From assembly GCA_964479955.1 (NCBI GenBank), contig CAYZNK010000001.1:144091-208090 (forward strand): a stretch of DNA of 64,000 nt, read 5' to 3'. Shown here in pieces: positions 11,611 through 54,482 of this stretch. The notes under the pieces are model-generated. The model worked only from the letters and a program-made list of their open reading frames with translations, did no database searches and was not told the origin of the DNA. Each line of letters begins with the position of its first letter. Position 1 is the first letter of the stretch. A program made the translations under genes and the position numbers. The DNA comes from an uncultured Candidatus Saccharibacteria bacterium (GTDB lineage: Bacteria > Patescibacteriota > Minisyncoccia > Minisyncoccales > Staskawiczbacteraceae).

Positions 11611-12921
11611 ATGTACGAATCGCCAAATATTAATTTTACAAAAATAAAAAACAAAGTTTTAAAAAACCTGCGGAGCAAGATTTTTTTAAATGGTTTTTAT
11701 TTTATTTTGATTGTAGTTGTAATAATTATCTTATCGTTTGCAATGCTGATAAGATATTTCCCAAAAGAAGCTGAAATGCTGTCAGAATCTTTAAAATTTC
11801 CGCAAATAGAACGGGAGAATAATAAAGCAGTCGAAAATCTGTTAGAAGAACCAGAAAGCTATGAATCAAAAATTTCTTATGAGCAGGCAATTATAGATGT
11901 TGTAAAGAATTCAAGCCAATCGGTTGTAAGCATTGTGATTTCCAAAAATTTGCCTATTTATGAACAAGAATGGGTTAATCCATTTGGGGATGATTCATTT
12001 TTTGACATACAAATACCTCAATATGTGCAAAAAGGAACAGAATATCAGGAAGTAGGGTCTGGCTCCGGATTTGTTGTTTCGTCTGATGGATTGATTTTAA
12101 CAAACAAGCACGTTGTTTCTGATAAGGACGCAGATTACACGGTTATAACGAACGGCGAAGAAAAATATTCTGCCAAAGTTTTGGCAACAGATCCTGTTCA
12201 GGATTTGGCAATAATAAAAATAGAAGACGCCGGAGGAAAAATTTTTAGTCCTTTAAGACTGGGAGATTCTTCTGGCATACAAATAGGGCAAACAGTAATT
12301 GCCATAGGTAATGCGCTAGGGGAGTTTGGCAACACGGTTTCAGTGGGAGTTGTTTCCGGCCTTGGAAGAACAATTTTAGCTTCTGATAAAACAGGGTCAG
12401 TGTCTGAAACATTGGAAGACATTATACAAACCGATGCGGCCATAAATTCCGGCAACTCAGGAGGCCCTTTGCTTAACTTAAAAGGCGAGGTAATTGGGAT
12501 AAGTACAGCAATGGCTGAACAGGCAGAGAATATTGCTTTTGCTATTCCCATCAATTATGCAAAAAGGGATATAGAGCAATCAATTACCACCAGTAAAATC
12601 ATATATCCTTTTTTGGGGGTCAGATATATTTTAGTGACAGAGGAAGTAAAAAAAGAATATGATTTGGGTGTTAATTACGGAGCTCTTATTTCAAAGGGTC
12701 CTGATGGACAGGCGGCTGTGACAAAAGGTTCTGCGGCAGAATCAGCCGGACTTAAAGAAAACGATATTATACTGGAAATAAACGGTCAAAAAATTAATCA
12801 AAGCAACACCCTGTCCAAAATAATACAAAAATATAATGCAGGAGATACGGTAAATTTAAAAATTTTAAGAAACGGCCAGGATTTTAATGTGGATGCAACG
12901 CTTGGGGAGAGAGCAGATTGA
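11611..12921 (+). CDS. htrA: HtrA/DegP-family serine protease with PDZ domain
   Basis: Trypsin-like fold with GSGSGFVV...TNKHVV (His), TDAAINSGNSGGPLLN (Ser), a C-terminal PDZ and an N-terminal TM anchor. Confidence 0.9.
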   Translation: MYESPNINFTKIKNKVLKNLRSKIFLNGFYFILIVVVIIILSFAMLIRYFPKEAEMLSESLKFPQIERENNKAVENLLEEPESYESKISYEQAIIDVVKNSSQSVVSIVISKNLPIYEQEWVNPFGDDSFFDIQIPQYVQKGTEYQEVGSGSGFVVSSDGLILTNKHVVSDKDADYTVITNGEEKYSAKVLATDPVQDLAIIKIEDAGGKIFSPLRLGDSSGIQIGQTVIAIGNALGEFGNTVSVGVVSGLGRTILASDKTGSVSETLEDIIQTDAAINSGNSGGPLLNLKGEVIGISTAMAEQAENIAFAIPINYAKRDIEQSITTSKIIYPFLGVRYILVTEEVKKEYDLGVNYGALISKGPDGQAAVTKGSAAESAGLKENDIILEINGQKINQSNTLSKIIQKYNAGDTVNLKILRNGQDFNVDATLGERAD

Positions 12922-13139
12922 CATTTATTTTTATTTTGCTAATATAAATTTAAGAACATGAAAAATCAAATTAACCTCACAACAAACTTTTGGTTTTATT
13001 TTAGCCCCTTTGAGAAAGAGGTTTATTTGAGCATTCCAATCTAATAAGAAACCAAAAAAGAAAATTCAAATAAGCCCCTTTCCAAAAGGAGCTTTTTTGT
13101 TCATTGCCAATTTAAGGAAACAAGAAAAAGGAGAAAACA

Positions 13140-13403
13140 GTGGTTATTTTTATGCAAGATGCAAATATGGATAAAGCTGGAGATGTGGCAAGAAAATTTA
13201 CCAGCAGAGGAATGGATGTTCTTGCAAAAAACGGAGATGGTAGAATCGTTTTGGCTGTAATAGGGCTTGGGGCAGACAGAACAAAACTATCTGAGATTGA
13301 TAAAATGCCCGGTGTTGAAAGATGCGAAAGGAAGAACAATTTTTTTACTGATAATCACGGAGACTTTAAGGACGCTTGTTTTTTCTTTAGGTGGGGATAC
13401 TAA
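13140..13403 (+). CDS. Hypothetical small protein (about 85 aa) with canonical SD, inside the foreign-looking island
   Basis: AAGGAGA SD 5 nt before a GTG/ATG start. The ORF is followed by stable hairpins. No recognisable domain. Confidence 0.3.
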   Translation: MVIFMQDANMDKAGDVARKFTSRGMDVLAKNGDGRIVLAVIGLGADRTKLSEIDKMPGVERCERKNNFFTDNHGDFKDACFFFRWGY

Positions 13404-13426
13404 TTTCCTGCCAAGCAAAGTTTTTT

Positions 13427-13471
13427 GCGGGAGCTTTTGCCCCGCTTTTTTATTGCAATAAAAAAGCGGGC
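13427..13471. terminator. Tandem hairpins including a perfect palindrome (cccgcttttttatt/aataaaaaagcggg); possible bidirectional terminator
   Basis: GC-clamped, AU-rich palindromic stem at 13441-13470 preceded by gcggg/cccgc. It lies between convergent small ORFs. Confidence 0.4.
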
Positions 13472-13519
13472 TTTCGTGATGTAAAAGTCCGCTATTGGTT
13501 TTTGCCTAGTTCAGGCCTG

Positions 13520-13699
13520 CTAAACGGTCATCATCTTAAAGCGATGACGGCGCCCTCCGGGACCCATCATAGGTCCACTTTGCGGGGAACTGGTAATTCT
13601 GATATTGGGCCGAGGGTCTTTGGTCCTGGGTTTTGCCGCACGCGTGGTCTTGCTCTTCTCTTTCATACGTTCCAGAATACGTTTGACCCTCTCTTCCAT
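13520..13699 (-). CDS. Hypothetical 59-aa protein encoded in a GC-rich (about 50%) segment, with strong SD
   Basis: AAGGAGA SD 5 nt upstream of an ATG (MEERVKRILERMKEK...GPMMGPGGRRHRFKMMTV). Composition is strongly atypical for this genome. No known domain recognised. Confidence 0.35.
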   Translation of the reverse strand: MEERVKRILERMKEKSKTTRAAKPRTKDPRPNIRITSSPQSGPMMGPGGRRHRFKMMTV

Positions 13700-13799
13700 A
13701 CCATTCTCCTTTGCAAATGCCAAGTCCTTCCAGACTCCTTCTTTCAAACCACCTCCAAGATGGCCTGAAAAAAAGACGGGACTTTGGCGCAAAATATAT

Positions 13800-14057
13800 T
13801 TATTCCACTCTGAACTCAAACGGCAACGGCCTTTGCGACAAAACAAAAATCCATTTTCCTTTTATATCCCTTACTATAGATTTGTAGTAATAGGTTTTGT
13901 AAGTCCTGAAATTTATCTCTCGGGTTTCGTAACGTAATTTGTATCTGCCTTTGGGCAGGCAATTAGCATCAATACCTATACCCAGCAATATGCAGATTTT
14001 TGTGTAGAGTCGCAACAGTTCTGTTAACATGGTCAGCCTTTCTTTGTTCTGGTTCAA
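13800..14057 (-). pseudogene. Possible DDE-transposase remnant (IS4/IS5-like fragment)
   Basis: An 85-aa ORF, LGIGIDANCLPKG, resembles the first catalytic-Asp region (IDxT) of IS4/IS5-family transposases. It is truncated and has no partner ORF. Confidence 0.25.
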
Positions 14058-14232
14058 AATTCGTTCCCTATAATTTATCTTATCATATTATTGTATTTAT
14101 GTCAATAGTATGGCGAAAGTTGGGCGCAATAATGCTAATTTCCACCATTGGCAATTTATTCTTAAAACTTGATTTTTACTAAATTTTGGGTTATAAATAA
14201 TGAAAACTTAAAAATAAATATAAATTTAAACA

Positions 14233-16938
14233 ATGAACGGAGGAGCAAATTTTACAAATAAAGCCCAGGATGCAATAATGCAGGCTCAGCAATTTGCGCA
14301 GGAAAAATCCCAGCAGCAAATTGATGCCTTACATTTGCTGCTTTCTTTGATTTTGCAGGAAGGGAGTATTGTATCTGTAATATTGCAAAAATTGGGAGTT
14401 GACACAGAAAGCCTTAGAAAAAAGGTTGAACTTCAAATTACAAAAATTCCAATAGTCTCAACTCCGCAGACATTTGGGCAGTTTTACCTTACACAGGATA
14501 TGGCAAAAGTTTTGGAAAGGGCGCGCCAAGAATCAATAAAAATGAATGATGAATTTATTTCCGTTGAGCATTTGTTTTTGGCTTTACTGGATACAAAATC
14601 GGTTGCAAAAGATATTTTAGAAAAAGTGCAGTTTTTTGCAGCAGAAGGGGCAAACAGCTTTAAATCTTCCAAGCTTGATTATGAAACTGTTCTAAAAATT
14701 TTATCGCAAATCAGGGGAGGCCAAAGAATCACTGACCCGGAGCCCGAATCAAAATACCAGGTGATTGAAAAATATACAAGAAATCTGACTGATTTGGCAG
14801 CCGCAGGAAAAATTGACCCGATAATCGGCAGGGATAATGAAATAAGAAGACTGATGCAGATAATTTCTCGCAGGACAAAAAATAATCCTGTTTTAATAGG
14901 AGAAGCCGGAGTTGGAAAAACCGCTATTGTTGAAGGTTTTGCCCAAAGAATTGCAAAAGGAAATGTGCCGGAGTTTTTAAGAAACAAAGAAATTATTTCA
15001 TTGGATTTGGGGGCTATGATAGCTGGCACAAAGTACAGGGGAGAATTTGAAACAAGAATGAAGGCTCTTTTAAAAGAGCTGGCAAGGTCTGCTGGCAAAT
15101 ATATTTTGTTTATTGATGAGCTGCACACTTTGGTTGGAGCAGGGGCCGCTGAAGGAGCTATTGACGCTTCAAATCTTTTAAAGCCGGCATTGGCCAGGGG
15201 AGAGCTTAGGGCTGTTGGAGCTACAACTTTAAAAGAATATCAAAAATACATTGAAAAAGACCCGGCTTTGGAAAGAAGGTTTCAGCCCATTTATGTGCAG
15301 GAGCCCAATGTTGACGACGCAACAGCAATTTTAAGAGGAATAAAAGAAAAATACGAAGTCCATCATGGAGTAAGGATAAAAGACTCTGCAATAAAAGCCG
15401 CGGTTGATTTGGCAAACAGATATATTTCTGACAGGTTTTTGCCAGACAAGGCAGTTGACTTGATGGATGAGGCAGCCTCTGCGTTAAGGCTTGAGATTGA
15501 GTCTGACCCCCAGGAGCTTGAAAAATATGATGAAGAAATTACAAAACTTGAAATTGAAAAGCAGGCTTTGAAAAAAGAAAAAGGCTCTGAAAGGAGGTTA
15601 AAATCAATTGCGCGGGAATTGGCGGATTTAAAAGAAAAATCAAAGGGATTAAGGGCAAAGTGGTCTGCTGAAAAAGACCTTATAAACAAAATAAAAGAAA
15701 CAAGGCAAAAGCTGGATGAGCTGTCTTATCAGACTGAAATTGCGCAGAGAGATGCAAATTTAGAAAAGGTTGCCGAGATAAAATATGGAAAGATTCCCGA
15801 ATTGTTAAAAGAGCAAAAAACAGCTGAACAAAAATTGGTTAAGCTTCAGCAAACCCATCATTTTCTGAAAGAAGAAGTAACTGAAGAGGATGTTGCAAAA
15901 GTTGTTTCAAGGTGGACAGGAATTCCGGTTACAAGGCTTATTACAGAAGAGGCAAAGAAATTGGAGACAATGGAGGCTGTTTTGAATAAAAGGGTAATTG
16001 GGCAGCAAGAGGCTATTTCAGCTATTTCAAGGGCAATCAGAAGGGCAAGAGCCGGAATTTCAGAAGAAAATAAGCCACTGGGGTCGTTTTTATTTTTGGG
16101 ACCAACCGGAGTTGGAAAAACAGAAACAGCAAGAGCTTTGGCAGAATTTTTATTCAACGATGAAAAGGCAATGATAAGGCTGGATATGTCAGAGTATATG
16201 GAGCGCCACACTGTTTCAAAAATTATTGGTTCTCCCCCGGGCTATGTTGGATATGAAGAAGCCGGCCAGCTTACAGAAAAAGTAAGGCGCAGGCCGTATT
16301 CCGTGCTTTTGCTAGATGAGATTGAAAAAGCTCATCCAGATGTTTTTAACATTTTACTGCAAATTTTTGAAGACGGCAGGCTTACGGATTCCAAAGGCAG
16401 AATGGTTTCTTTCAAAAATACAATAATCATAATGACTTCAAATACGGGCTCTGACTACATCAACAAAATGTCTGCAATTGGATTCAGCAACAAAGAAGAT
16501 GTGGCTGAAAGGGAATCAATGCGCGACAAAATTTTTGACGCGTTAAAAGAGTCTTTTAGGCCCGAATTCTTAAACAGAATTGATGAGATTGTAATTTTCA
16601 ATTATCTGAAAAAAGAAGAAATCAAAAAAATTGTTGATTTGGAATTGTCAAAAGTTGAGAAAAGATTACAGGCAAAGGAAATTAAAATACAAATTTCTGA
16701 AAAAGCCAAAGAACTTTTGATTAAAGAGGGATTTGACCCCAGCTTGGGGGCCCGCCCGTTAAAGAGAATAATCCAAAAGCTGATTTTAGATCCGTTGTCT
16801 GTTAAAATTGTAGCAGGAGAAATTTTTGAGGGGAGCAGGGTTTTGATTGACGAAGAAAACGGAAAAATTATTTTTGAAATTCCAAAGCCATTGCCAAAAC
16901 CCAAAAAATCTCCAAAGCTGTTAAAAGCTAAAAAATAA
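14233..16938 (+). CDS. clpB: ATP-dependent chaperone ClpB (two AAA+ modules plus M-domain coiled coil)
   Basis: Clp_N repeats, two Walker A motifs ([16 protein letters not shown]), a long coiled-coil middle domain and ClpB sensor motifs. 901 aa. Confidence 0.95.
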
Positions 16939-20547: not shown

Positions 20548-23088
20548 TTGATATCAAGAGAAGAATACCTCGCAGATAAAGCGGATATTTTTGTTGTTAA
20601 TCCTCTAACCGAAGATAATACTTTGGTTTTAAAGAGGCCCGATAAAAGCATTTCTGATAAAATTGGTTGGCAGAATGCAACTGATTTTGAAACAACCCCT
20701 GCTTGTTCTTTTGCTGACGGCCAAAGCATTGAAAGGAAAATAATCGGCAAAGATACAGATAATAATTTTGATGATTTTAGGGTTTCTGGCGCTCCAAGCC
20801 CAAGGGAAAGCTTTATTAAGGCTGGAATTGAAGACAAAACAGATTATGACAGCAGCCTTAAGTGTGATGACGGAGTTTATTTTTATGAGTTAAGCTTAAG
20901 TTGGGATTCAACATTGCCTGATGTTGAATTTTTCCATTTGCAATATAGATTAAATAATGGGGATTGGCAGGATTGGTTTTTAGAAACAAAAGAAACATCA
21001 GCTAATTTTAAGGGTTTTTATTCTTTGATTGAGGAAGAAAATTTGTATTCTTTTAGAGTAAAAGCGCAGGATATATATGGAAATGAATCTGATTGGCAGG
21101 AAATAGACATTGATTTATCGGTTCCTGTTGTGATTAATGAAGTTGCTTTATTCGGAACAATTGCCGGCAACAGCGACAATTGGCTTGAGCTTTATAATAG
21201 GTCAGAAAATGATGTTGATTTGACAGGATGGCAGATAACTTTTGAAGGAGGAAGCATTTTGTTATCAGAAAAAATTCCGGCAAAAGGATTTTATGTTTTG
21301 GAAAAAGGGGACGATAATGTCTTAGATACGCCCGCTGATAGTATTTTTGAAAGCGGTTTTTCAGGCAGATTTCTTTATTTGAAAGACAGTAAAAACAGGC
21401 GTGTTGACGAGGTTTACGACAATGGAGACTGGAACTACTGTAATGTGGAACAAAATAATTTTTCGTTGGAAAGGATAAGCCCGTATTCTTTTGGGTTTGT
21501 TAAGGAAAATTGGAAGCTTAATGACTCAAAAAAAATGAACGGTAAAGACCGGGATGGAAATTCTGTTTACGGCACTCCGGGAAATGAAAACAGCCATTAC
21601 CAACTATATACGGTTTTGCCAACTGGTTTTGGCAGAGATATTGTTTTGCCAAAAAATTTAAGCCCTTATACGTTTTTTGAAAATACAAAAGTTTTTGAGG
21701 GCACAAAGTTAACAGTTTCCGAGGGGACTGTTTTAAAGGCAATAAATCCGTTTGGCAAGATTGTAATTGAAGGGACATTAAAGGCAATTGGCAGTTCTGA
21801 AGAAAAAATCGTTTTTACTTCTGTTCTTGATGACGAGTTTGGCGGAGATACAAATGATGACCTTTCAGAAACTGTCCCAGGCCCTGGAAACTGGTTTGGC
21901 ATAGAGTTTACCAAAAAAAGCGTGAATTCTGAGATAGATAATGTTATTTTCCGTTATGGCGGGTCATCTTTGATTGAATTTGGCGCTAGCGTGAAAATAA
22001 ATCAAGCTGCTGTGAAAATAAAAAATTCAATATTTGAAAATAACCTTAACAAAGGATTATTTTTGGTAAATTCATCATCTGAAATTGAATCAAGTCAATT
22101 TTTAAATATGCAAGAATCCAGCCCAAACACCGGATTTAATGCGGTGGGAATTTCTGTTTTGGGCGGAGCGGATATTATCAAAGACTGTTATTTTAAAGAA
22201 AACAATTATGGAATTACAGTTGAAAATTGGAATGATGAAAACGGTGAAGTTTTTAATTCTCAAGTTTTAATACAAAATAATAATTTTGAAAAAAACGGAA
22301 AGCCAATATATGCCGGGACCCTGAATAGTCCTGTTTTTTCAGACAATAAAGCTGTAGAAAACGATTGCAACGCAATTGTATTTTTCAGGCATGCAATAAC
22401 AAATGATTTAACCTTAAGGCCGGATTTGCCATATTCGGCAGATGGGTTCTTTTTCGTTCCGGAGAACGCAACATTAAGCTTGGAGCCAGGAGTTGTGATG
22501 AATCTTTCTGGAATAAATATTGACGGAACATTAAAGGCAATAGGAACACAAGAAAGTCCAATTATCTTTAGGGATTATTATTGGGACCAAGAGTGGGCTC
22601 AAAGGCCAGGCAAGTGGCATGGTTTAAGATTTTCAGAAGCAAGTAAAGATTCAGAGCTTGAAAATATTGAAATATCTTTTGCCGGGGATAATTCGCTTGA
22701 AGGGCGTGAATTTGAGGCGGCAATAAGGGCAGAAAACTGCAATATATCTTTAAAAAATTCAAATTTGTATGATAATCAAAATAACGGGTTGTATTTGATA
22801 AACGCAGATGCAGTTGTTGATACGGTTGTTTTTAAAAATCATACTGAAGTGGGATATCTTGGGGCAAGCGCAAATGCAATACATATAAAAGGAGGCAAAA
22901 CAGAGGTAAAAAACTCATATTTTGAAAACCAGACATTCGGTATTTATCTGGAAAAATGGATAGACCCTGATGGCAATGAAATTCTTCCTGATGCCAATTT
23001 GCATACAGACCCAGATGACCCTGAAAAAAATATTTTTGTAAATACTATCACTCCGGGAGGGGATATCTTTGACTCCACTCTTCCTTAA
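20548..23088 (+). CDS. C-terminal segment of the same surface protein: LTD remainder, Fn3-like region, third LTD, right-handed parallel beta-helix (PbH1) repeats
   Basis: The +1 frame, open from 20509, continues the interrupted LTD (KNYFLISREEYLADKADIFVVNP...). A third LTD (NWLELYNRSENDVDLTGWQI) follows. The C-terminus carries many N/G-rich PbH1-type repeats. Confidence 0.7.
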   Translation: MISREEYLADKADIFVVNPLTEDNTLVLKRPDKSISDKIGWQNATDFETTPACSFADGQSIERKIIGKDTDNNFDDFRVSGAPSPRESFIKAGIEDKTDYDSSLKCDDGVYFYELSLSWDSTLPDVEFFHLQYRLNNGDWQDWFLETKETSANFKGFYSLIEEENLYSFRVKAQDIYGNESDWQEIDIDLSVPVVINEVALFGTIAGNSDNWLELYNRSENDVDLTGWQITFEGGSILLSEKIPAKGFYVLEKGDDNVLDTPADSIFESGFSGRFLYLKDSKNRRVDEVYDNGDWNYCNVEQNNFSLERISPYSFGFVKENWKLNDSKKMNGKDRDGNSVYGTPGNENSHYQLYTVLPTGFGRDIVLPKNLSPYTFFENTKVFEGTKLTVSEGTVLKAINPFGKIVIEGTLKAIGSSEEKIVFTSVLDDEFGGDTNDDLSETVPGPGNWFGIEFTKKSVNSEIDNVIFRYGGSSLIEFGASVKINQAAVKIKNSIFENNLNKGLFLVNSSSEIESSQFLNMQESSPNTGFNAVGISVLGGADIIKDCYFKENNYGITVENWNDENGEVFNSQVLIQNNNFEKNGKPIYAGTLNSPVFSDNKAVENDCNAIVFFRHAITNDLTLRPDLPYSADGFFFVPENATLSLEPGVVMNLSGINIDGTLKAIGTQESPIIFRDYYWDQEWAQRPGKWHGLRFSEASKDSELENIEISFAGDNSLEGREFEAAIRAENCNISLKNSNLYDNQNNGLYLINADAVVDTVVFKNHTEVGYLGASANAIHIKGGKTEVKNSYFENQTFGIYLEKWIDPDGNEILPDANLHTDPDDPEKNIFVNTITPGGDIFDSTLP

Positions 23089-23138
23089 TAAAAAAGCCCC
23101 CAGAATTCCTTCTGAAGGCGTAATTGGTTTCTATGGGG

Positions 23139-23582
23139 CTAACTGCAGAGAGATGCCCATCTCCTGAAGAAAGATTTCTTCGGTTTTGGGTTAAAATCAG
23201 TGCTTACTCCCCACAAATTACCACTTTGAATAAGCCCCAAGATCTTGTCGCGAAGCTTGTTCAAATTGCCTGCCGACCTTGCCTGTACGGCAATGGTCAA
23301 TGTACGGCAGGCGTACTTTACATCGTTTGCAAACCTGCCCTCTTTGACAAGCTCTTTGAACCCATCGCTACGCACTTGGCCCCAAGCATCACCGAGGTAA
23401 AAATATGCCAGAGGAGGCTCTCTGTGGCGGATGTTATCAAGGGGGTCCCTAGATGAAACCTCAATCTCCTCTTTCCAACTCACTGTCATACCTTCTGGCA
23501 CAACAAAGTTTTCTGGCAAGGAAACAAATTGAAGTTTCCTTGCAACCTCCCCCTCGCTGTTTAAAAGAACCAAACTAGACAT
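23139..23582 (-). CDS. Hypothetical protein (147 aa) in GC-rich island, strong SD
   Basis: AAGGAGA SD 6 nt before an ATG. About 48% GC against a roughly 32% background. A divergent promoter lies upstream. No recognisable domain. Confidence 0.5.
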   Translation of the reverse strand: MSSLVLLNSEGEVARKLQFVSLPENFVVPEGMTVSWKEEIEVSSRDPLDNIRHREPPLAYFYLGDAWGQVRSDGFKELVKEGRFANDVKYACRTLTIAVQARSAGNLNKLRDKILGLIQSGNLWGVSTDFNPKPKKSFFRRWASLCS

Positions 23583-23679
23583 AGCCATTCTCCTTTCTTC
23601 TTTGCGTCTTGAGTGGTCTCAAGATCGCTAGTGGAGTGAACAAATCCTATATATTATATATATCACATAAATATTATTT

Positions 23680-23720
23680 TTGTCAATAGAATTGACATAA
23701 ATATAAAAATGAATTATATT
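23680..23720. promoter_or_regulatory. Divergent promoter pair sharing the palindromic operator TGTCAAT-aga-ATTGACA; each half-site is the -35 box of one promoter
   Basis: Plus strand: TTGACA (23692-97), 17 nt, TATATT (23715-20). Minus strand: TTGACA (rc of 23682-87), 18 nt, TG-n-TATATA. Perfect 7-bp inverted repeat with a 3-bp spacer. Confidence 0.55.
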
Positions 23721-23782
23721 TTATGTCAGGTGAATGCGCGTTGCATTTACAACGTTCTTTGTTCTTTTTTTGGAGGTGCGTT

Positions 23783-24061
23783 ATGGCCGACACAACTAAA
23801 CTGGCCGATACGTTTCCCGCGCTGCGCATTGTTGTTACGGTAAGCCCGCAAAATCTGTACGTTACTCTCGAGCATTGCAACAATTTGGGGCTTCTTCCCA
23901 ATGTGTGTGGCTATGAACCTCGGGGGAATCTTATTTTGTTTCAAGTTCTTGTGCCCGACCTTTCTTCTGGCGCCGAAGAAAGATTCAGTGCGGAAATAAA
24001 TCAGTTTGGCGCGAGAATTTGGAAAGTAACCAAAACCAAACTGATATGTCCGGTTTTCTGA
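23783..24061 (+). CDS. Hypothetical protein (92 aa) in GC-rich island, strong SD
   Basis: GGAGGTG SD 6 nt upstream of the ATG (MADTTKLADTFPALRIVV...). About 50% GC. Followed by a rho-independent terminator. Confidence 0.5.
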   Translation: MADTTKLADTFPALRIVVTVSPQNLYVTLEHCNNLGLLPNVCGYEPRGNLILFQVLVPDLSSGAEERFSAEINQFGARIWKVTKTKLICPVF

Positions 24062-24074
24062 TAGCCAACACTAG

Positions 24075-24113
24075 CCCCCTGCGTATTTAAAAGAATACAT
24101 AGGGGGATTTTTT
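24075..24113 (+). terminator. Rho-independent terminator (ccccctgcgtatt / aatacataggggg plus T-run)
   Basis: GC-clamped stem with a small internal loop, followed by attttttat. Confidence 0.6.
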
Positions 24114-24219
24114 ATGGTATTTTGACTTTTGGTTTTTTATTTGATAAATTTAAAATAATTGGCGCAAAAATGCGCGTATAGTTTTGTTTATGCTTTATAT
24201 TTTTTGAGCAAGATAAATC

Positions 24220-24813
24220 ATGAAAGAGGATTTTTTAAAATTAACCAGTTCTGCCTACAGATTGTCAGAGTATTTTCCAGAGTCAGACCCTTTGAAGGCA
24301 AAAGCAAAAGAAAGAATTTTATCTGTAATGGAAACGCTTGTTGCAATTGGGTGCGAGGCAAATTGGGCTGTTTTAGGAGTTTCAAGCCAACAGCGAATAA
24401 TAGGGGATATTGACGCTCTTTTGGGATATTTTGAAATTGCCAAAAATCAGGAATGGGTAAGCTCAATAAACTATCTGATAATTTCAGGAGAATATAAAAA
24501 GATAAGAGATGAAGTTTTGCAGGTTAAGGTTGTTAAAGAAACAATAGCAGATAATAGTGATAAAGAAACGGTTATCAGGCAGAATATAATAGTTGGTGAT
24601 TTAAAAGAGCAAAAATCGCAAAAGTTTTCTGAAAGACAGAAAAAAATAGTTGACTTTTTAAAAGAAAACAAAAAAGCCCAAGTTATGGATTTGCAGGCAG
24701 TATTGCCAAACATAACAAAAAGGACAATAAGAAGGGATTTGGACCAATTATTGGCAACAGGGGAGGTTATCAGAATGGGGGAATTTAATCAGGTATTTTA
24801 TAAAATAAGTTGA
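24220..24813 (+). CDS. Putative transcriptional regulator with C-terminal winged-helix (DeoR-like) HTH
   Basis: C-terminal RQKKIVDFLKENKKAQVMDLQAVLPNITKRTIRRDLDQLLATGEVIR is a DeoR-type HTH signature. N-terminal helical domain of unknown function. Confidence 0.55.
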   Translation: MKEDFLKLTSSAYRLSEYFPESDPLKAKAKERILSVMETLVAIGCEANWAVLGVSSQQRIIGDIDALLGYFEIAKNQEWVSSINYLIISGEYKKIRDEVLQVKVVKETIADNSDKETVIRQNIIVGDLKEQKSQKFSERQKKIVDFLKENKKAQVMDLQAVLPNITKRTIRRDLDQLLATGEVIRMGEFNQVFYKIS

Positions 24814-24821
24814 TGAGTTTT

Positions 24822-24870
24822 GATAGGACATAGTAATGTCAGATAGGACAAAAATATAAGAGATAGGACA
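24822..24870 (+). repeat. Three direct repeats GATAGGACA spaced exactly 20 bp apart (24822, 24842, 24862); putative regulator-binding array upstream of the ECF sigma gene
   Basis: Exact 9-mers with 20-bp periodicity, starting 9 bp after the stop of the HTH gene. Confidence 0.6.
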
Positions 24871-24891
24871 TTTTTACACAAAATAATAAAA

Positions 24892-24990
24892 TAGTCGTAT
24901 TTCCCTTGATTTATTTTTGAGTTTATAGTATAATAAAAAATCATTGAAAAGATAGATATGAATATTATTTTTAGTCGGGAAATACGACTA
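24892..24990 (+). promoter_or_regulatory. 14-bp inverted repeat tagtcgtatttccc ... gggaaatacgacta flanking an AT-rich promoter-like segment (tatagtataat) upstream of the ECF sigma gene
   Basis: Arm 1 at 24892-24905 and arm 2 at 24977-24990 are exact reverse complements. The second arm is itself palindromic (tagtcg-N7-cgacta). Confidence 0.4.
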
Positions 24991-25007
24991 AATAGCATAA
25001 TTAAAAA

Positions 25008-25505
25008 ATGGACGAGATTAGAGAACAATTTAGCCGGATTTATGACCAATATATAGGCAAAATATACAGGTTTGTTTATTTGAAGGTTAGCTCAGAAGAA
25101 GTTGCGCAGGATATTACTTCCAAGGTGTTCACAAAAGGCTGGGAAGCCTATCAAAAAGGGGTTAAAAACCCAGGGGCTTTTCTTTATCAGATAGCCAGAA
25201 ATTCTGTTATTGATTATTATAGAGAAAAAGGTAGGACAAACACAGTATCTTCGGATTCAATTCCTGAATTGCAAGATAATAGCAAAAGCATAGAAGAAAA
25301 CGCTATTTTGGCTGCTGATGTAAAAATGGTAAAAACAGCCCTATTAAGGATAAAAAAAGACTATCAGGATGTCCTTATTTGGCATTATTTGGATGATATG
25401 CCGATAAGCCAGATTGCCGAAAATCTTAATAAAAAAGAAGGGGCGGTCAGGGTAATGATACACAGGGGCCTAAAAGACCTAAAAGATATTATTCAATCCT
25501 CCTAA
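25008..25505 (+). CDS. RNA polymerase sigma-70 factor, ECF subfamily
   Basis: Sigma-2 region (YRFVYLKVSSEEVAQDITSKVF) and sigma-4 HTH (DDMPISQIAENLNKKEGAVRVMIHRGLKDL). Confidence 0.85.
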   Translation: MDEIREQFSRIYDQYIGKIYRFVYLKVSSEEVAQDITSKVFTKGWEAYQKGVKNPGAFLYQIARNSVIDYYREKGRTNTVSSDSIPELQDNSKSIEENAILAADVKMVKTALLRIKKDYQDVLIWHYLDDMPISQIAENLNKKEGAVRVMIHRGLKDLKDIIQSS

Positions 25506-26554: not shown

Positions 26555-29500
26555 ATGAGTATAAAAAGAACAATTATTTCGACTATAGTCGCTTTGGCTA
26601 TGGTTGCGACAGTTGCTCCTTCAGTTGCTCAGGGTGTAACAATTGAAGAATTGTTAGCCCAGATTGCTGCTTTGCAAGCTCAATTATTGGCTTTGCAAGG
26701 AGGCACAACAACAACCGGAACATCAACTTATACAGCTTGCGCTGGAGTTACCTTCACAAGAGCTTTAACAGTTGGTTCAACCGGATCTGATGTAAAGTGC
26801 TTACAGCAAATCTTAAATGGAACCGGTTATACGGTTGCAACAACAGGAGCAGGCTCACCAGGCTCAGAAACAACCTACTTTGGAAATTTAACCTTAGCGG
26901 CTGTTAAGAACTGGCAGGCAGCTCAAGGATGGACACCTGCAAACCAGGTTGGCCCATTATCAAGAGCCAAATTAAATTCAATCCTTGCTGGTTCTTCAAC
27001 TGGCACAGGAGGAACCGGAACAGTTATTCCAACAGGCGCAGGATTATCAGTTGCATTAGCGTCTAATAATCCAGCATCAGGAACAGTTGTTGCCGGACAA
27101 GCTCAAGCTCCCTTGGCAAGACTGGTCTTTACAAACGGCGATAATGCCGAGGTAAAGGTTACAACATTGAGATTGATGAGAGGAGGCGTTTCATCTGATT
27201 CGGCTTTATCAAATGTTTATTTGTTTGATGGAGCAGTCAGGTTGACAGATGCAGCTTCAGTTTCGGCTGGAGTCATTGGTTTTAATGATTCAATGGGACT
27301 TTTCACAATTCCTGCATACAGCTCAAAAACAATTACAGTTGCAGCTGATATCTTGAGCACATTAACTGGCGGAACAGTATCTGTAAGCTTAAATTCATCT
27401 TCAGATATCACAGCAAATTCAAGTTCCATAAAAGGAATGTATCCTTTGTACGGGAATACAATGTCAATCGTTGCTAACAACAACAATTTGGCAACAGCTT
27501 ATTTCTCGGTTAACAATGGAACAAGCGGTTTGGATGGTTCATATAACCCAGACGTAACACCAGCAGGAACATCTTCAACAAGCGGAATTGACCCGCAGAA
27601 TGATTATCCTGTTTGGTACACAAACCTTAATGTAAACATTAGCAATGGAACAGTAAGAATGAGCAGGTTTGCATTAAGAGAAGTCGGCTCAATCAACTAT
27701 TCTGATCTTCAAAACTTCAGGTTATATGTTGATGGAATACAGGTAGGTTCAGCAGTACAAAGCCTGGACGCAAACGGATATGTAACATTTGATTTGTCAT
27801 CAAGCCCGGTTTCAATGCAATCCGGAGCAAGACAAATAAAAATGTTAGCAGACATAACTGGAGGATCAAGCAGGTACTTCAGCTTCCAGTTAAAAACATC
27901 AGCCGATATCACATTAACCGATGGACAATACAATGTTAACATTGCTCCAACTTATAACAATGGTTCAGCCACTACAACAACATTTACAGCATTGAGAAGC
28001 TGCTGGTATAATACCGGTTCAGCGTATCAGTGTTATATCAATTCAGGTGCCACCACAACAACAAAGACATCTGATTCTCCATCAGGAGATGTTGTTAATT
28101 CAGCAAGCGGACAATTGTTAGGAAAATGGACATTGAAATCCAACGGTGAAAGAATTAAAGTTGATACTTTAAAGGCATACGTATTGTTTGGAAACACCGT
28201 AGCTACGGGAGATGATACAGAGTCTGCAACTTCTACAACATTGAGAAATGCAGCTTTGTATGCCAATGGAGTGCAGATTGGAAACACGGCCAACTTAGCA
28301 ACAGTAACATCAACCTATGTTGGTTCAGTTACTCCAACTACATTCAATTTGGGATCGTCTTTAATAGTTGATCCGTCAACTCCAGTAACATTGGAGTTGA
28401 AGGCAGATATCTACGATAACGCAGGTAGCAACAACGACATTGACGCAACCGACACATTGCAAGCAAAATTGTATGTCGGTTCAGGAAACGGTCAGGGAAT
28501 GGTATCTTCAACAACAAGCAATGTCCCAACAGCAACAACTGCAGCTAACCAATTGACAGTTGCGGCCGGAGGATTAACGTTGTCTCAGTATACAGCTTAT
28601 ACAGCTCAGACAATCGTTGCTCCTCAGACAAACTTTAAATTAGCTCACTTCACATTATCAGCCAGCACAACAGACACTGTTAATGTTTCAACAATTGAAG
28701 CTGATTTAGACTATGTCTCAGCCTTTGTAACCAATCTTTATGTAAAAATTGGTGATTACATGACAACGACAAAGGCCACAGTATCAGCTGCAAACACATG
28801 GTCCGTTAATTATGCTTTGCCAGCAGGCAACATAGTTGATGTAACGGTATACGGAGATTTGTCATCTTCAGCAGTTTGTCCATCAGGAAATCCATGCAAT
28901 GCCAGCGTATTGGTATCTGGAACAACAGCCAATTCGGCAACATCTGTAACAGGTCCTTCCAATGGAAGTGCCGCTACGGGTCAATCCATTGTGGTTGGAA
29001 CAGCTTCCTTCACAGGAACAGTTGACGGCTCAACTCCGTTAGCCGGAGCAGTTGCCGGAAACCAGTTGGTCGCAGGAGCCAAGTTTAAACTTACGGCTCT
29101 CTATGATAGCTACACGGTTACAGAAGCTAAAGTGCAGGCAAAAGACGACAATAACAGCAACAATGGAGCCGTTATTAAATCAGCCACTTTAACTGATGGA
29201 ATAAACAGCTACACAGTTCCATTTGACTCAGCGAATAACTACTTCTACTTTACCGGAATGAGCATTCCTGTTACCGCCAATTCAAACAAGGTATTAACAG
29301 TTAACCTTGATTTGTCTAATCCTGTAGCAGACACGTCAACAACCGGACAAAACGTAAAGCTTACTTTGTACGGATTAAAGGCTCTTAACAGCCAGGGAGA
29401 AGTGAAAGCCGATGGAACAGGTATTACGGGATCTGGCATCACTCTAAGTAATGCTGCCGGAAACCATATGTATGTTTACAGGTCAGTTCCAACCTTCACT

Positions 29501-30184
29501 AAACTTGCTGTAACAGGACAGGGAACAAATTTGAAGGCAGGCAGTGAAATCGTTTTGTACAGATTTACTGCAGGGGCTGATGCAAAAGGACCAGTTGCCT
29601 TGAAACAAATCAAGTTTACGGTAACAGTAGCTGATGATCCTGCTGCAGATACTTCACCTGTATTGGGAACCTTCAAGTTCTTTAGAACTGCATCAGGAAG
29701 CGAGACAGATATTTCTGATTATGTCCATATAACTGGAAATGGCTCAACTGATTTGGAGGCATCTGACACAATCGTAGAAGGAGGCAGCACTTATGCATAC
29801 GTAATCTTTGATACAGAGGAAACAATTCCAGCTGGTCAGACATATACATATGAATTAAGAGCAACTCCATCAGGATTTGCCGGATCAACTACAGATGCTG
29901 ACTCAGTCGCAACAAGCGTTGCAGTTGATTCAGCTCCAGCTGATACAACAGCGGGATACGATGTGACAGAGCCATACTTGTCAGCAGCTAGTGCATACAA
30001 CATCTATACATTGCACTCAGCTCAAAACGGTGGTGGGTCAGATACAGCTGAAAATGTCATCTGGTCTGATAACTCAGCTCTTAGCCACGACTGGACATAC
30101 TCAGCTTCTTCAGCTGACTGGTTCGGAGGCTACTTGATTAAGAGTTTGCCACTTTCAGCCACAGGTATTAACTACAACAACTAG
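26555..30184 (+). CDS. Large secreted cell-surface (S-layer-like) protein with N-terminal peptidoglycan-binding domain and long Thr/Ser/Gly/Ala-rich beta-rich region
   Basis: Signal peptide (MSIKRTIISTIVALAMVATVAPSVAQG). PG_binding_1-like segment (LTVGSTGSDVKCLQQILNGTGY...YFGNLTLAAVKNWQAAQGW). 1209 aa with strongly biased T/S/A/G/N/V composition. Confidence 0.75.
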   Translation: MSIKRTIISTIVALAMVATVAPSVAQGVTIEELLAQIAALQAQLLALQGGTTTTGTSTYTACAGVTFTRALTVGSTGSDVKCLQQILNGTGYTVATTGAGSPGSETTYFGNLTLAAVKNWQAAQGWTPANQVGPLSRAKLNSILAGSSTGTGGTGTVIPTGAGLSVALASNNPASGTVVAGQAQAPLARLVFTNGDNAEVKVTTLRLMRGGVSSDSALSNVYLFDGAVRLTDAASVSAGVIGFNDSMGLFTIPAYSSKTITVAADILSTLTGGTVSVSLNSSSDITANSSSIKGMYPLYGNTMSIVANNNNLATAYFSVNNGTSGLDGSYNPDVTPAGTSSTSGIDPQNDYPVWYTNLNVNISNGTVRMSRFALREVGSINYSDLQNFRLYVDGIQVGSAVQSLDANGYVTFDLSSSPVSMQSGARQIKMLADITGGSSRYFSFQLKTSADITLTDGQYNVNIAPTYNNGSATTTTFTALRSCWYNTGSAYQCYINSGATTTTKTSDSPSGDVVNSASGQLLGKWTLKSNGERIKVDTLKAYVLFGNTVATGDDTESATSTTLRNAALYANGVQIGNTANLATVTSTYVGSVTPTTFNLGSSLIVDPSTPVTLELKADIYDNAGSNNDIDATDTLQAKLYVGSGNGQGMVSSTTSNVPTATTAANQLTVAAGGLTLSQYTAYTAQTIVAPQTNFKLAHFTLSASTTDTVNVSTIEADLDYVSAFVTNLYVKIGDYMTTTKATVSAANTWSVNYALPAGNIVDVTVYGDLSSSAVCPSGNPCNASVLVSGTTANSATSVTGPSNGSAATGQSIVVGTASFTGTVDGSTPLAGAVAGNQLVAGAKFKLTALYDSYTVTEAKVQAKDDNNSNNGAVIKSATLTDGINSYTVPFDSANNYFYFTGMSIPVTANSNKVLTVNLDLSNPVADTSTTGQNVKLTLYGLKALNSQGEVKADGTGITGSGITLSNAAGNHMYVYRSVPTFTKLAVTGQGTNLKAGSEIVLYRFTAGADAKGPVALKQIKFTVTVADDPAADTSPVLGTFKFFRTASGSETDISDYVHITGNGSTDLEASDTIVEGGSTYAYVIFDTEETIPAGQTYTYELRATPSGFAGSTTDADSVATSVAVDSAPADTTAGYDVTEPYLSAASAYNIYTLHSAQNGGGSDTAENVIWSDNSALSHDWTYSASSADWFGGYLIKSLPLSATGINYNN

Positions 30185-30274: not shown

Positions 30275-32533
30275 TTAGTGGGGAAGAGTTTGAAGAAACA
30301 TATCTACCTCTTCTTTTGCATCAGGCATAAGCTGTAAAAATATCATTGCTTGTTCCCTTGCTTTTTTATATTCTTTTAATTGGACATAAACAAAAGCCAA
30401 AGAGGCATAATTTTGTGCAACATCGGGTTTTCTTTTTATAATTTCTTGGTAAACAATTACAAGGCTTGAATAATCATTTATCTCAGTAAAAGCATTTGCC
30501 AGTTGATATAAATAAGTTATGCTGATGTTTCCATATTTTTCAATAAATGTCTGAAAATTTTCATTTGCTTGTTCTATTTTTTTTAAATATATTTCCGACA
30601 TAATTTTTATCCAATAGCATTCTGCTAAATCTGGCTCCAATTCAATACACTTTAGTGCCATTTTTTCCATTTCTCCATAATTTCCTGCTACCATATTAAG
30701 CTTTGCTTGTTCTATTACTACTTCTGGATGAAGGGGGGCCAGTTGCTCTGCTTTTTTAAGATAAGAGTCAGATTTTTGTAATAATAAATCTTTTTGACTT
30801 AAGTCTTTTTCTGAAGCTGCTTTTATATTTGTAAATCCTCCCAAAAAAAGCCAAAAACGAGAATATGTTGGTCTAATTTCTATTGCTTTTTCTAAAATTT
30901 TGCTTCCCATCTCTGCATATTCTAAATTTTTATCAGGATTTATTGATGCGCATAATTTTATATTTTCAACATAATGAATTATAATGTGCGCATCTAAAAA
31001 ACTGTGTTTTTTAAGAAGATTCTCAGATATTGAAAAAGATTTTTCGCACTTTTCGTTTTCCGCAAGGTCATCTGCATCGTTAACTTGTTTGTTAATTTGC
31101 AGAGGCAAAAAATTGTATTGCCATAAAAAAATCAATAAAAAAACAGATAAAACAGTTACAATAAATCTTTTCCCTTTTATTTTTTTATAATTTTTTTGAT
31201 TGTTTGCATCTTCATTTTTATGAGGATATATTAAAAACATTGAATATCCTACTATTAAATAAAATAAAAGGTATGAAGAAAATCCGTCAAAACTAAAAAA
31301 GTTTGCAGCAGAATATGCAATTATCGTAGCTTGAATTCCATGGCAAATTTTGTTATCGCTGACCTTCTTATTTTTTTGTAGGAGTAAAAAAATTGCCATA
31401 AAGAGAACAATATATACTATAGTAGCCGGAATTCCGCTAGTTACCGCAACATCCAAAAATGCATTGTGAGACCTGTCCCACCATCCTCCCCATGTTTTTG
31501 ATATATAAGGAAGGGAAGGGTCATAATGTTTATCAAATCCAATAGCAAGATTTTCTGGACCCCATCCTAAAATAGGTTTTTCTATTATTGCTTTTATAAC
31601 TACTTTCCATGCAGAAAATCTTGGGTCTGCTAAGGCTGAATCTATGGAAAGTCTGTTTTTAACTGAGTTAAAAATTCTATTGTCTTCCAAGAACTCCGGA
31701 AATATTTTTTGAGAGTTAATATAATAAACGGTAAAAAATCCAAGAACAATTAATGCCCCAAAAATAATTTTTAAAATAATAATTTTTTTAAAAACGGGTT
31801 TGTTTTTGGGTGTATTTTTAATCGGATAAAACAATAAAAAATATGTTGCTCCGGCCAGTAATCCAATATATGAGGCCCTAGACCCCGTTATTAGAATTGT
31901 AAATAAAAATAATAGAACAGCTGAAAAATAAAAGATTTTACGCCAGCGGATTTTTTCTTTTATGGCAAAGACAAATGTTATAAAAAATAGCAAAAGAATA
32001 TAAATACCCAACATTATTGGGTTTCCCATTGTTGACGGAGGCCTGTCTCCTGAGGAAATAAATATATTGCTGAATAGTCCATAGTACTGGATAAAGGCTA
32101 TTAAAGATGCCAAAACCCCTACAAGTATAGAGAAATCAAGAAGTTTTTTCCAGTCTTCTGCTTTTATACTTAAAAAAGTAAAAACAGCAAAGATTATATA
32201 AAATAAAAAATTTATCGCACCTTGTGCTCTGTAGGGAGAGCCCCATAAACTAAAATTTATGTCTTGAGAAAATATTGTTGATAATATTATTAACAGAAAA
32301 TATATCCCAAAAATCCAAAAAACTTTGTTGTTTTTGAAGCTTGGCAGGTGTAACTCGTTTCTTTTATAAAGGAATTGCCACATAAAAAGAAATAATAGAA
32401 TTGACATGACAATTCTAAAAATGATTCCTTTACCCCAATCAACAGGATGGAGATAGTTAGGACCTGCTAAAATTGGCAAAAATAAAATTATTAAAATTCC
32501 TATAAGATAAACCTTGTATAATGAATTTTGCAT
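30275..32533 (-). CDS. O-antigen ligase / Wzy_C-family polytopic membrane protein with C-terminal TPR repeats; candidate O-oligosaccharyltransferase or polymerase
   Basis: More than 10 TM helices. The Wzy_C hallmark ILITGSRASYIGLLAGA. The C-terminal roughly 250 aa form TPR-like repeats. Confidence 0.8.
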   Translation of the reverse strand: MQNSLYKVYLIGILIILFLPILAGPNYLHPVDWGKGIIFRIVMSILLFLFMWQFLYKRNELHLPSFKNNKVFWIFGIYFLLIILSTIFSQDINFSLWGSPYRAQGAINFLFYIIFAVFTFLSIKAEDWKKLLDFSILVGVLASLIAFIQYYGLFSNIFISSGDRPPSTMGNPIMLGIYILLLFFITFVFAIKEKIRWRKIFYFSAVLLFLFTILITGSRASYIGLLAGATYFLLFYPIKNTPKNKPVFKKIIILKIIFGALIVLGFFTVYYINSQKIFPEFLEDNRIFNSVKNRLSIDSALADPRFSAWKVVIKAIIEKPILGWGPENLAIGFDKHYDPSLPYISKTWGGWWDRSHNAFLDVAVTSGIPATIVYIVLFMAIFLLLQKNKKVSDNKICHGIQATIIAYSAANFFSFDGFSSYLLFYLIVGYSMFLIYPHKNEDANNQKNYKKIKGKRFIVTVLSVFLLIFLWQYNFLPLQINKQVNDADDLAENEKCEKSFSISENLLKKHSFLDAHIIIHYVENIKLCASINPDKNLEYAEMGSKILEKAIEIRPTYSRFWLFLGGFTNIKAASEKDLSQKDLLLQKSDSYLKKAEQLAPLHPEVVIEQAKLNMVAGNYGEMEKMALKCIELEPDLAECYWIKIMSEIYLKKIEQANENFQTFIEKYGNISITYLYQLANAFTEINDYSSLVIVYQEIIKRKPDVAQNYASLAFVYVQLKEYKKAREQAMIFLQLMPDAKEEVDMFLQTLPH

Positions 32534-49998: not shown

Positions 49999-50136
49999 AA
50001 AATTCTTTTGGGTTCTAAAACATCTTGATTCTAAGTATTTTAAGGAATATAATAAGCAAATAAATATTATATAAATATATAATAAATAAATAAGAATTAC
50101 AAGCTTATAATAGAACAAAATAGTGCTAAAAACTTT

Positions 50137-51129: not shown

Positions 51130-51145
51130 ATAAAAATGCAAAAAA

Positions 51146-53748: not shown

Positions 53749-53762
53749 AAATATATGAATAT

Positions 53763-54482
53763 ATGATGGAAAAAAATGTATATGACGATATTGACCCTGA
53801 AGTTTACGAAAGCAGGCGGGGTCAGGATCAAAAGCAAGAATATTTATATGAACATTGGGAACCCTTTGTATCAGATTTAATTGTTAAATATTCAAAAGGA
53901 CATATTGTTTTAGACTTAGGGTGCGGAACCGGAAAGTATTCTTTTGAAATCGCAAAGCATGCTAAAAAAGTTTTTGCATTAGATTCTTCAGAAAGAATGT
54001 TGGATTATGCTAAGAAAAAGTATCCAGAGATGAAGTTTATATATGCTGATGCAACAAACACTCCGCTTGAGGATAATAGCATTGATGTTGTGTTTTCTTT
54101 TGGACTTCTGGAATATGTCAAAAATAAAGAAAAGTTAATTAAAGAAATATCAAGGCTGTTAAAACATGGAGGAACAGCTATAGTTTCATCAACAAATATA
54201 TATAGTATTCCCTGTTTTTTTATAGCGATATATTATAAGATTATTGGCAAGAAGAGAATGACTACAGAACCCTCTTTTGGCAAGATGAAAAAAATATTTA
54301 ATGCTCTTGGTTTTGAAATTATCGATTATAAAATGGATGATGGATTATTCTGGTTACCGTGTAAATTGGATAAACTCTTTGGTAAAAAAACATATTTATT
54401 TATAGAAAATTTTTTTAAGATTTTTAAACGGAATCCTTTTAGTACGGTAATGTTTTTTATCATTAAAAAATTAGATTACTAA
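53763..54482 (+). CDS. Class I SAM-dependent methyltransferase (Methyltransf_11-like)
   Basis: VLDLGCGTGKYSFEIA motif I and LKHGGTAIVS. Confidence 0.85.
   Translation: MMEKNVYDDIDPEVYESRRGQDQKQEYLYEHWEPFVSDLIVKYSKGHIVLDLGCGTGKYSFEIAKHAKKVFALDSSERMLDYAKKKYPEMKFIYADATNTPLEDNSIDVVFSFGLLEYVKNKEKLIKEISRLLKHGGTAIVSSTNIYSIPCFFIAIYYKIIGKKRMTTEPSFGKMKKIFNALGFEIIDYKMDDGLFWLPCKLDKLFGKKTYLFIENFFKIFKRNPFSTVMFFIIKKLDY

Follow-up and report, generated by a model that had tools for sequence, protein, structure and literature searches.

Here we examine a GC-rich island in a 64,000-nucleotide (nt) stretch of DNA from an uncultured Candidatus Saccharibacteria bacterium; the whole stretch is called the window, and positions refer to it unless a contig is named. 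The island lies between a gene for an 846-amino-acid (aa) surface protein with LTD and beta-helix domains, which stops at 23088, and a gene for a DeoR-type helix-turn-helix (HTH) protein at 24220-24813. It carries a divergent pair of small open reading frames (ORFs)—A on the minus strand and B on the plus strand. We propose, with a probability of roughly 0.7, that the island consists of two unrelated autonomous accessory-gene cassettes placed back to back at a strain-variable intergenic site in a candidate phyla radiation (CPR) chromosome. Each cassette would comprise a sigma-70-type promoter close to the consensus, a 5' leader that is short and structured, a canonical Shine-Dalgarno (SD) sequence, one small orphan ORF, and an intrinsic terminator. 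The features are as follows, in order of position.

23090..24119, both strands: strain-variable island of 1030 nt, cassettes A and B from terminator to terminator, as delimited by alignment with the contig L047 and matched by the contig L049 (both described below)
23090..23119, minus strand: predicted intrinsic terminator of cassette A; hairpin at 23119..23096 with a 10-pair stem, followed by TTTTTTATTA (T run)
23139..23582, minus strand: ORF A, 147 aa plus stop; orphan CPR family, start MSSLVLLN
23589..23595, minus strand: SD of ORF A, AAGGAGA, within the near-invariant AAAGAAGAAAGGAG, 6 nt before the ATG
23604..23628, minus strand: hairpin 2 of the A leader, GCGA-UCUUGAG-ACCA-CUCAAGA-CGC in the window; 97.5% of cells paired over 20 loci, 2 compensatory pairs
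23636..23647, minus strand: GGAUUUGUUCAC, the apparent remnant of the 3' arm of A leader hairpin 1; to judge from the family alignment, the window copy lacks the 5' arm as well as the ancestral promoter
23686..23657, minus strand: putative promoter of cassette A, read from the sequence; -35 box TTGACA at 23686..23681, 18-nt spacer, extended -10 box TGaTATATA at 23662..23657
23675..23703, both strands: palindrome with extended arms, 13 nt each (23675-23687 and 23691-23703), 12 of 13 positions complementary; contains the two -35 boxes back to back
23692..23720, plus strand: predicted promoter of cassette B, TTGACA-17-TATATT; 11 of 12 matches, top of the promoter scan
23731..23749, plus strand: hairpin 1 of the B leader, a few nt past the predicted transcription start; 6 of 7 pairs covary over 6 loci
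23772..23778, plus strand: SD of ORF B, GGAGGTG, 4 nt before the ATG; a U-rich/CCUUU-type stretch upstream can pair with it
23774..23815, plus strand: predicted hairpin enclosing the B start codon; untranslated region (UTR) positions -9..-1 with codons 9-11 and an inner GGCCG/CUGGCC stem, 14 pairs, 95% paired, 3 compensatory
23783..24061, plus strand: ORF B, 92 aa plus stop; orphan family MADTTKLA...LGL.P...LICP, predicted ferredoxin-like fold
24075..24113, plus strand: predicted intrinsic terminator of cassette B; CCCCCTGCGTATT...AATACATAGGGGG, then TTTTTT

The island stands apart from its surroundings in both composition and translation signals. ORF A has a GC content of 46.8% (0.50 at third codon positions, GC3) and ORF B one of 46.6% (GC3 0.46), against means of 32.7% (standard deviation 4.1) and 0.274 (standard deviation 0.051) for 53 other long ORFs of the window; the corresponding z-scores are 3.4-3.5 for GC and 3.7-4.5 for GC3. 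For the island as a whole GC is 43.3%, compared with 33.4% for the window. An initial annotation of this DNA had recognized the GC-rich island, correctly, but its figures of 48-50% GC and a 15-18% excess are a bit high—the ORFs are at ~47%, and the excess is 13-14 points. Its description of textbook SD sequences in an SD-poor genome is borne out: AAGGAGA and GGAGGTG are both present, and a 4-nt SD core at -18..-4 occurs in just 2 of the 53 other ORFs.

The longest frames run from 23139 to 23588 for ORF A (149 aa) and from 23723 to 24061 for ORF B (112 aa), and these are the lengths annotated in the public sequence record. The family-conserved starts lie further inside; they are MSSLVLLN at the second ATG of A (23582) and MADTTKLA of B (23783).

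Two families of small proteins

Homologues of A comprise 37 proteins of ~145-150 aa with 41-57% identity, all of them from metagenome-assembled genomes of Patescibacteria/CPR or from metagenomes. The family is present in 9 of 185,579 species-representative genomes. Its hosts among the species genomes are Harrison-, Jorgensen-, Lipton-, Uhr-, Vogel-, and Kerfeldbacteria, Elulimicrobium, and Saccharibacteria, to which 20 metagenome loci are added. The relatives of B were missed by a word-indexed search and found by an exhaustive phmmer search, which returned 42 proteins with 23-53% identity, mostly of 88-110 aa. These are encoded by stand-alone genes in varied contexts—following the genes for ribosomal proteins L11 or L7/L12, behind a gene with a Germane domain, and elsewhere. 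Like family A, family B is restricted to CPR bacteria.

In codon-aware alignments the differences at codon positions 1, 2, and 3 are 0.24, 0.21, and 0.44 for A and 0.43, 0.32, and 0.62 for B. This pattern (third > first > second) indicates coding sequences under purifying selection, and by this measure both A and B are real protein genes. A different view would be that the island encodes structured non-coding RNAs and that the ORFs are accidental; RNA genes often form GC-rich islands in AT-rich genomes, and both transcripts have structured 5' ends. We regard this as highly implausible, given that both ORFs have protein homologues with the codon-position pattern just described and that confident AlphaFold2 models could be built for A and for B from the family alignments. 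In addition, the folding z-scores of the window copies are unremarkable, Rfam gives nothing at the gathering threshold over the whole window and only chance-level hits at E <= 5 for 22900-24300, and ARAGORN finds no tRNA.

The initial annotation saw no recognizable domain in either protein, and for curated libraries this stands: Pfam, PHROGs, NCBIfam, and PADLOC contain no match to A or B beyond sub-threshold noise (for example type IV Cas11, E 0.03), and a PDB sequence search with both family profiles returned nothing. Yet both proteins belong to conserved families, and for B a fold can be predicted. Curated libraries, profile searches, and fold searches gave no HTH, ribbon-helix-helix (RHH), or other DNA-binding signature or fold match in A or B. 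For A there is no convincing fold relative, and a Foldseek search of its model against BFVD came back empty.

B is confidently predicted to be a generic ferredoxin-like domain, with the family motifs KLA..F.AWR, LGL.P, and LICP and three cysteines. PII, CutA, ACT, and RAM are likewise small ferredoxin-like proteins; however, B shares only 5-12% sequence identity with them and has conserved motifs of its own. Profile membership and the ligand or T-loop features of PII, CutA, or ACT proteins were not found in B, which has no Pfam or PDB sequence match. The B domain also serves as the N-terminal module of longer proteins. In a single case, the 261-aa protein P0079, a double Clp_N domain precedes an ORF-B-type domain in the same chain (hhalign probability 98.9%). 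It is possible that the B domain is functionally tied to Clp chaperones, which we offer as a lead and not as a result.

We also observed that a B homologue in L042 (3001-5902) adjoins a ClpB/ClpC-type AAA+ gene, and that P0040, P0041, and P0050 have the B domain fused to a common C-terminal domain of ~150 aa, the latter with no Pfam match. The window has a ClpB gene of its own at 14233-16938.

Independence of the two cassettes

Whether A and B belong together can be judged from their other occurrences. Our comparison covers ~30 A loci (20 distinct and complete) and ~10 B loci (6 distinct), with both profiles run over six-frame ORFs. A and B are mutually independent: none of the ~30 A loci has a B-type ORF near A, none of the ~10 B loci has an A-type ORF near B, and the two occur together in the window only. 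Each of the homologous loci has one promoter of its own, with the form TTGACA or TTGACT-17-TAnnnT and often an A or T preceding the hexamer ("ATTGAC"); B homologues carry the equivalent promoter TTGACA-17-TAnnnT.

In family A the conserved unit begins near the -10 box or the transcription start and runs to ~90 nt beyond the stop codon, a length of ~600-725 nt in total. Its nucleotide identity is 78-82% among Paceibacterota, Harrison-, Lipton-, and Uhrbacteria, which are separate candidate phyla in NCBI, and 67-75% to Jorgensen-, Vogel-, and Kerfeldbacteria; the window A coding sequence is only ~55% identical to the other copies at the nucleotide level. The neighbours of the A loci all differ and include genes for CCA-adding enzyme, RecO, QueC, and others.

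A further observation concerns the 3' end of the A unit. In L003, L005/L008, and L009, in the region ~0-90 nt past the stop, the terminator has a conserved loop, GGCCGCC-UAGUAGCGAAAGCGAAC-GGCGGCC, followed by a conserved stretch of ~40 nt, AAUAAUUUGAAAGAACAAAGAAUUUGCCGCC; the window copy has neither the loop nor the stretch.

The initial annotation had interpreted the locus as a self-regulated, mobile two-gene module, in which a dimeric repressor encoded by A or B binds the palindrome between the genes and silences both promoters. In its favor, both -35 boxes are overlapped by an exact palindrome that has no second copy in the window, and A and B were gained or lost jointly in the sole strain comparison available. 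Still, we consider such a module quite improbable: A and B are linked nowhere else, each family carries its own promoter and leader when alone, neither protein has the DNA-binding features searched for, and the proposed operator is unconserved in every homologous locus, an outcome that the initial annotation itself had named as refuting its reading.

Conserved leader RNAs

Among the conserved features of the cassettes, the leaders stand out most. In the ~85-nt A leader, hairpin 1 (GAACAUGCCA-UGG-UGGCUUGUUC) is joined by a short linker to hairpin 2 (GCGA-UCUUGGG-ACCA-CUCAAGA-CGC), after which AAAGAAGAAAGGAG follows. Across the 20 distinct sequences 91.5% of pair cells hold standard pairs, against 22-50% in slid controls; 6 pairs show compensatory changes, and 0 of 500 shuffles reach the observed value. 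The 39 nt of hairpin 2 and SD are 91% identical over all pairs of sequences and 92.7% identical between the window and the others. In the RNAfold prediction for A, codons 5-7 (GUUCUUUU) pair with the SD, and a small hairpin containing the AUG lies between them; this fits the third-position identity of 0.73 in codons 1-10, compared with ~0.5 elsewhere.

The B leader is shorter, at ~55 nt; one stretch in it, U-rich or of the form CCUUU, is able to base-pair with the SD. Of the cells in its alignment 96% are paired, as opposed to 30-39% in slid controls; compensatory changes affect 9 of the 21 pairs, a result that again 0 of 500 shuffles reach. In the hairpin around the AUG, UTR positions -6..-2 covary with codons 9-10, as GUACC/GGUAC, GUGUU/AACAC, and GUGCU/GGCAC, and the third-position identity of codons 1-10 is 0.71 versus ~0.35 elsewhere. 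Codons 1-10 of both families are constrained at synonymous sites. At the level of sequence alignment, conservation and covariation are thus established for the leaders of both A and B.

Cassette-specific control would most likely take place after transcription start, by means of these conserved leaders. The hairpin near the 5' end probably stabilizes the mRNA, and the structures that occlude SD and AUG probably gate translation—in A by pairing of the SD with codons 5-7, and in B by pairing of the UTR with codons 9-11. The trigger might be temperature, a protein (perhaps the gene product itself), or another signal.

One further candidate for an A leader was set aside. A 21-mer identical to the A leader and SD (CAAGACGCAAAGAAGAAAGGA) is found in the IMG/VR sequence L048 (7540-7560), 7 nt ahead of the ATG that starts a small, unrelated phage ORF and with no hairpin; this is probably chance or convergence on a ribosome-binding site.

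The palindrome between the promoters

The palindrome at the center of the island, TGTCAATAGAATTGACA at 23681-23697, is an exact 7+3+7 repeat (TGTCAAT-aga-ATTGACA) and occurs once in the window; a scan that allowed <=2 mismatches found 2 matches in the window, with 0.5 expected. As the initial annotation had noted, both -35 boxes lie in its halves, and the sequence confirms the plus-strand arrangement TTGACA-17-TATATT and the minus-strand arrangement TTGACA-18-TGaTATATA. Our promoter scanner omits the latter, since its rule demands T at position 6 of the -10 hexamer; it reports a second minus-strand candidate, CTGACA-18-TATATT, at 23729..23700.

This palindrome is absent from every homologous A or B locus. 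Because the -35 boxes of both families usually lie in the context "ATTGAC", a 7+3+7 palindrome arises automatically from two promoters that stand back to back at a distance of 3 bp. The palindrome is therefore most likely simply two ATTGACA -35 boxes with 3 bp between them. The window copy of A is atypical in this region: it has neither the family's TGCTATCAT -10 region nor the 5' arm of leader hairpin 1, and its promoter mirrors the -35 region and proximal spacer of the B promoter. The A promoter in the window may have arisen from the B -35 region as an inverted copy, by inverted duplication or by promoter replacement after 5' truncation.

A host factor might instead use the palindrome as its operator and co-regulate two acquired genes—the DeoR-type HTH protein, whose gene directly adjoins the island, would be one candidate. 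The symmetry of the arms reaches beyond the hexamers, and the 13-mer ATTGACATAAATA occurs again at the promoter of a second island (14106..14094). However, the HTH gene is also present in an island-free strain and has host-like composition, the 13-mer at the second island is not palindromic, and AT-rich spacers readily match by chance. We find regulation of this kind unlikely, and keep to two abutting -35 boxes as the explanation of the palindrome.

Strain variation and probable spread

The island varies between strains. An exact-sequence lookup of the neighbouring HTH protein led to L047, a contig of 1571 nt from a related strain in another sample, whose identity to the window is 88.6% over positions 22879-23089 and 98.5% over 24120-25309; between these flanks, where the window has 23090-24119, the contig has 170 nt that are unrelated to it. 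The edges of this alignment indicate that the island boundaries coincide with both cassette terminators, and the difference in identity between the left and right flanks suggests a recombination breakpoint. The island-free allele (L047 212-381) contains 2 copies of a 28-nt hairpin repeat, cttTGCGGTgtcggagACCGCAagacca, and a terminator-like hairpin; the repeat is absent from the 64-kb window. L049, an independent assembly from a third sample, is 100% identical to window positions 23016-24149, and its two ends lie 74 and 30 nt beyond the island, as would fit a polymorphic junction. The island is supported as a gain-or-loss polymorphism. The claim that it is recently acquired and compositionally foreign has held up, with the island-free allele, the GC excess, and the rarity of family A as its basis.

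In most of the cassettes examined, GC is raised above that of the host locus: it is 0.46-0.59 in A genes against 0.41-0.54, and 0.51-0.57 in B genes against 0.36-0.41. The excess is small in some hosts (0.457 against 0.449 in L012) and nil for the B copy in L045 (0.487 against 0.498). One B copy in a host with 29% GC has drifted wholly to host composition, with a GC3 of 0.18, so that high GC looks like a legacy of origin and not like a functional requirement. At 4 of 5 host loci checked, nearly all neighbours have no SD and the cassette gene has one. Taken together, the sequence patterns of A and B fit horizontal spread with gradual drift towards host composition.

Several copies lie directly beside tRNA genes (L003, L007, and L029 for A; L041 and L045 for B). 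As a side observation, 3' ends of IS30-type transposase genes (...RPRKRLGYRTP.EV...) are found just upstream of an A cassette in L001 (~3180-3290) and of a B cassette in L045 (~45-164), and these two genomes are unrelated. L018 (3317-4709) holds three consecutive cassettes that encode a 133-aa protein, a 109-aa B homologue, and a 66-aa protein, at a GC of 0.48-0.52 in a locus of 0.37. Each of the three comes with its own SD, TTGACA promoter, and leader with a hairpin; the small genes are mutually unrelated, and the trio is also present in the related contig L019. This triple arrangement shows that such cassettes tend to cluster.

The cassettes might also be immobile: old, vertically inherited CPR genes that were lost in most lineages and that owe their GC content and conservation to selection on mRNA and protein. 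Strong purifying selection on the leader and 5' coding region would agree with this, as would the lack of a vector or recombination signature. Against it stand the nucleotide identities of 78-82% over 600-725 nt across candidate phyla, reached despite third-position divergence and in wholly different neighbourhoods, and the presence of the A cassette in so few species genomes. Moreover, near-identical strains differ in presence and absence, copies adjoin tRNA genes and IS30-type remnants, and one B copy has fully adopted host composition. Vertical descent with loss seems to us an unlikely account.

Several observations do weigh against the reading of the island as two mobile, independently controlled cassettes. 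Past the hexamers, the arms of the palindrome (12 of 13) contain more symmetry than two independent promoters need, and a trans-acting factor is possible. Target-site duplications, terminal repeats, and a recombinase were not found at the island ends. Phage and plasmid collections (DNA and tblastn searches; INPHARED, BFVD) and profile scans of IMG/VR yielded no relatives of A or B. The covariation in the A leader is modest, the sequences being so alike, and that in the B leader is based on six sequences only.

Comparison with known systems

The cassettes resemble several known systems in part. Phage morons—said to have been described by Juhala and colleagues and by Hendrix and colleagues in 2000—are reportedly autonomous promoter-gene-terminator units of deviant composition that lie between phage genes. 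Like morons, the A and B cassettes contain a single small gene with its own sigma-70 promoter and factor-independent terminator, deviate in composition, and are sporadic and variable between close relatives. Unlike morons, they are chromosomal, have no relatives in phage collections, and carry family-specific, highly conserved structured leaders. The autonomous unit of promoter, ORF, and terminator with deviant composition is therefore found here, and a phage or prophage location is not; the neighbours of the cassettes are chromosomal genes, such as those for ClpB, pilin, LTD surface proteins, an extracytoplasmic function (ECF) sigma factor, and ribosomal proteins.

FourU and ROSE RNA thermometers and the stem-loop in the 5' UTR of IS200 tnpA are leaders that occlude the SD or ribosome-binding site. 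The A and B leaders are similar in being short and in that the SD or AUG pairs with a run of pyrimidines or with the early coding sequence, and some of the known leaders also have a 5'-proximal hairpin. In contrast to these, the A and B leaders match no Rfam family by sequence or covariance model, and ORF A is no Y1/HUH transposase. Structures that would occlude SD and AUG are predicted and covary in the A and B leaders; a role as RNA thermometers would be one possibility.

Divergent promoters with a shared operator form the control regions of tetR/tetA and of lambda PR/PRM. The island shares with these two divergent promoters with -35 boxes inside one palindrome; however, it encodes no recognizable DNA-binding regulator, and the arrangement is unique to this genome, the promoters being single elsewhere.

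Other classes of element were considered and rejected. A type II toxin-antitoxin pair does not agree with genes that are divergent rather than operonic, never co-occur elsewhere, and have no PADLOC or Pfam match. For a minimal element of the IS200/IS605 type, there is no PF01797 match, and the 37-sequence A alignment has no invariant His-x-His or catalytic Tyr. As to integron gene cassettes, A and B each have their own promoter, and the 3' element is a plain terminator hairpin without R''/R' GTTRRRY cores. We found no description of A or B cassettes in the literature.

Other compositional outliers in the window

A second GC-rich island is located at 12900-14110 (GC 0.44-0.49). Its minus-strand promoter, ATTGACATAAATA-...-TAAGAT at 14106..14075, begins with the 13-mer that is identical to the right arm of the A/B palindrome. 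The island carries SD-bearing minus-strand ORFs without a family, one of 77 aa (13803-14033) and a basic one of 59 aa (~13523-13702); the SD and spacer of the latter, AAAGGAGAATGGTATG, are almost those of ORF A. A plus-strand promoter at 12917 leads to an SD-bearing ORF of 83 aa (13152-13400) with a weak match to a DAHP-synthase ferredoxin-like domain. Within 13391-13846 ORFs overlap on opposite strands, so coding status is uncertain there. The two islands have just one 13-mer and one 12-mer in common, and profile searches found no relationship to A or B for the ORFs of the second island or for the 133-aa and 66-aa ORFs of L018.

Two more stretches deviate from the window in composition. A 1209-aa ORF at 26555-30184 has a GC2 of 0.52, above its GC1 of 0.44 and GC3 of 0.32, and PG_binding_1 as its sole domain match; it is probably a low-complexity envelope protein. 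The region 50000-57000 is an outlier in the opposite direction, strongly AT-rich with a GC of 0.23-0.27 and a GC3 down to 0.13-0.17, and lies within a long co-directional gene cluster beyond an O-antigen-ligase-type gene (30275-32533).

Implications for CPR genomes

What is new at this locus is the pair of cassette families, together with their conserved leaders, rather than an operator. It also holds a caution for similar cases: a palindrome between divergent genes can stem from two abutting -35 boxes rather than from an operator.

Knowledge of how foreign genes enter and are expressed in CPR bacteria is very limited, and most of their small proteins are uncharacterized. We tentatively suggest, at somewhat less than even odds, that CPR genomes exchange an undescribed class of promoter-to-terminator "plug-and-play" cassettes—usually GC-rich, with their own sigma-70 promoter, an SD, and a leader that is better conserved than the protein—which would build up at intergenic hot spots next to tRNA genes and insertion sequence (IS) remnants. 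If so, the leaders of A and B would represent two novel cis-regulatory RNA motifs, and the proteins would be new accessory functions, possibly in stress response or protein quality control. An expression unit of ~0.6-0.7 kb would thus circulate between candidate phyla and keep canonical translation signals in hosts that otherwise do without them, with its leader RNA under stronger constraint than the protein downstream. The locus yields two testable RNA motifs and two protein families with which this can be pursued.

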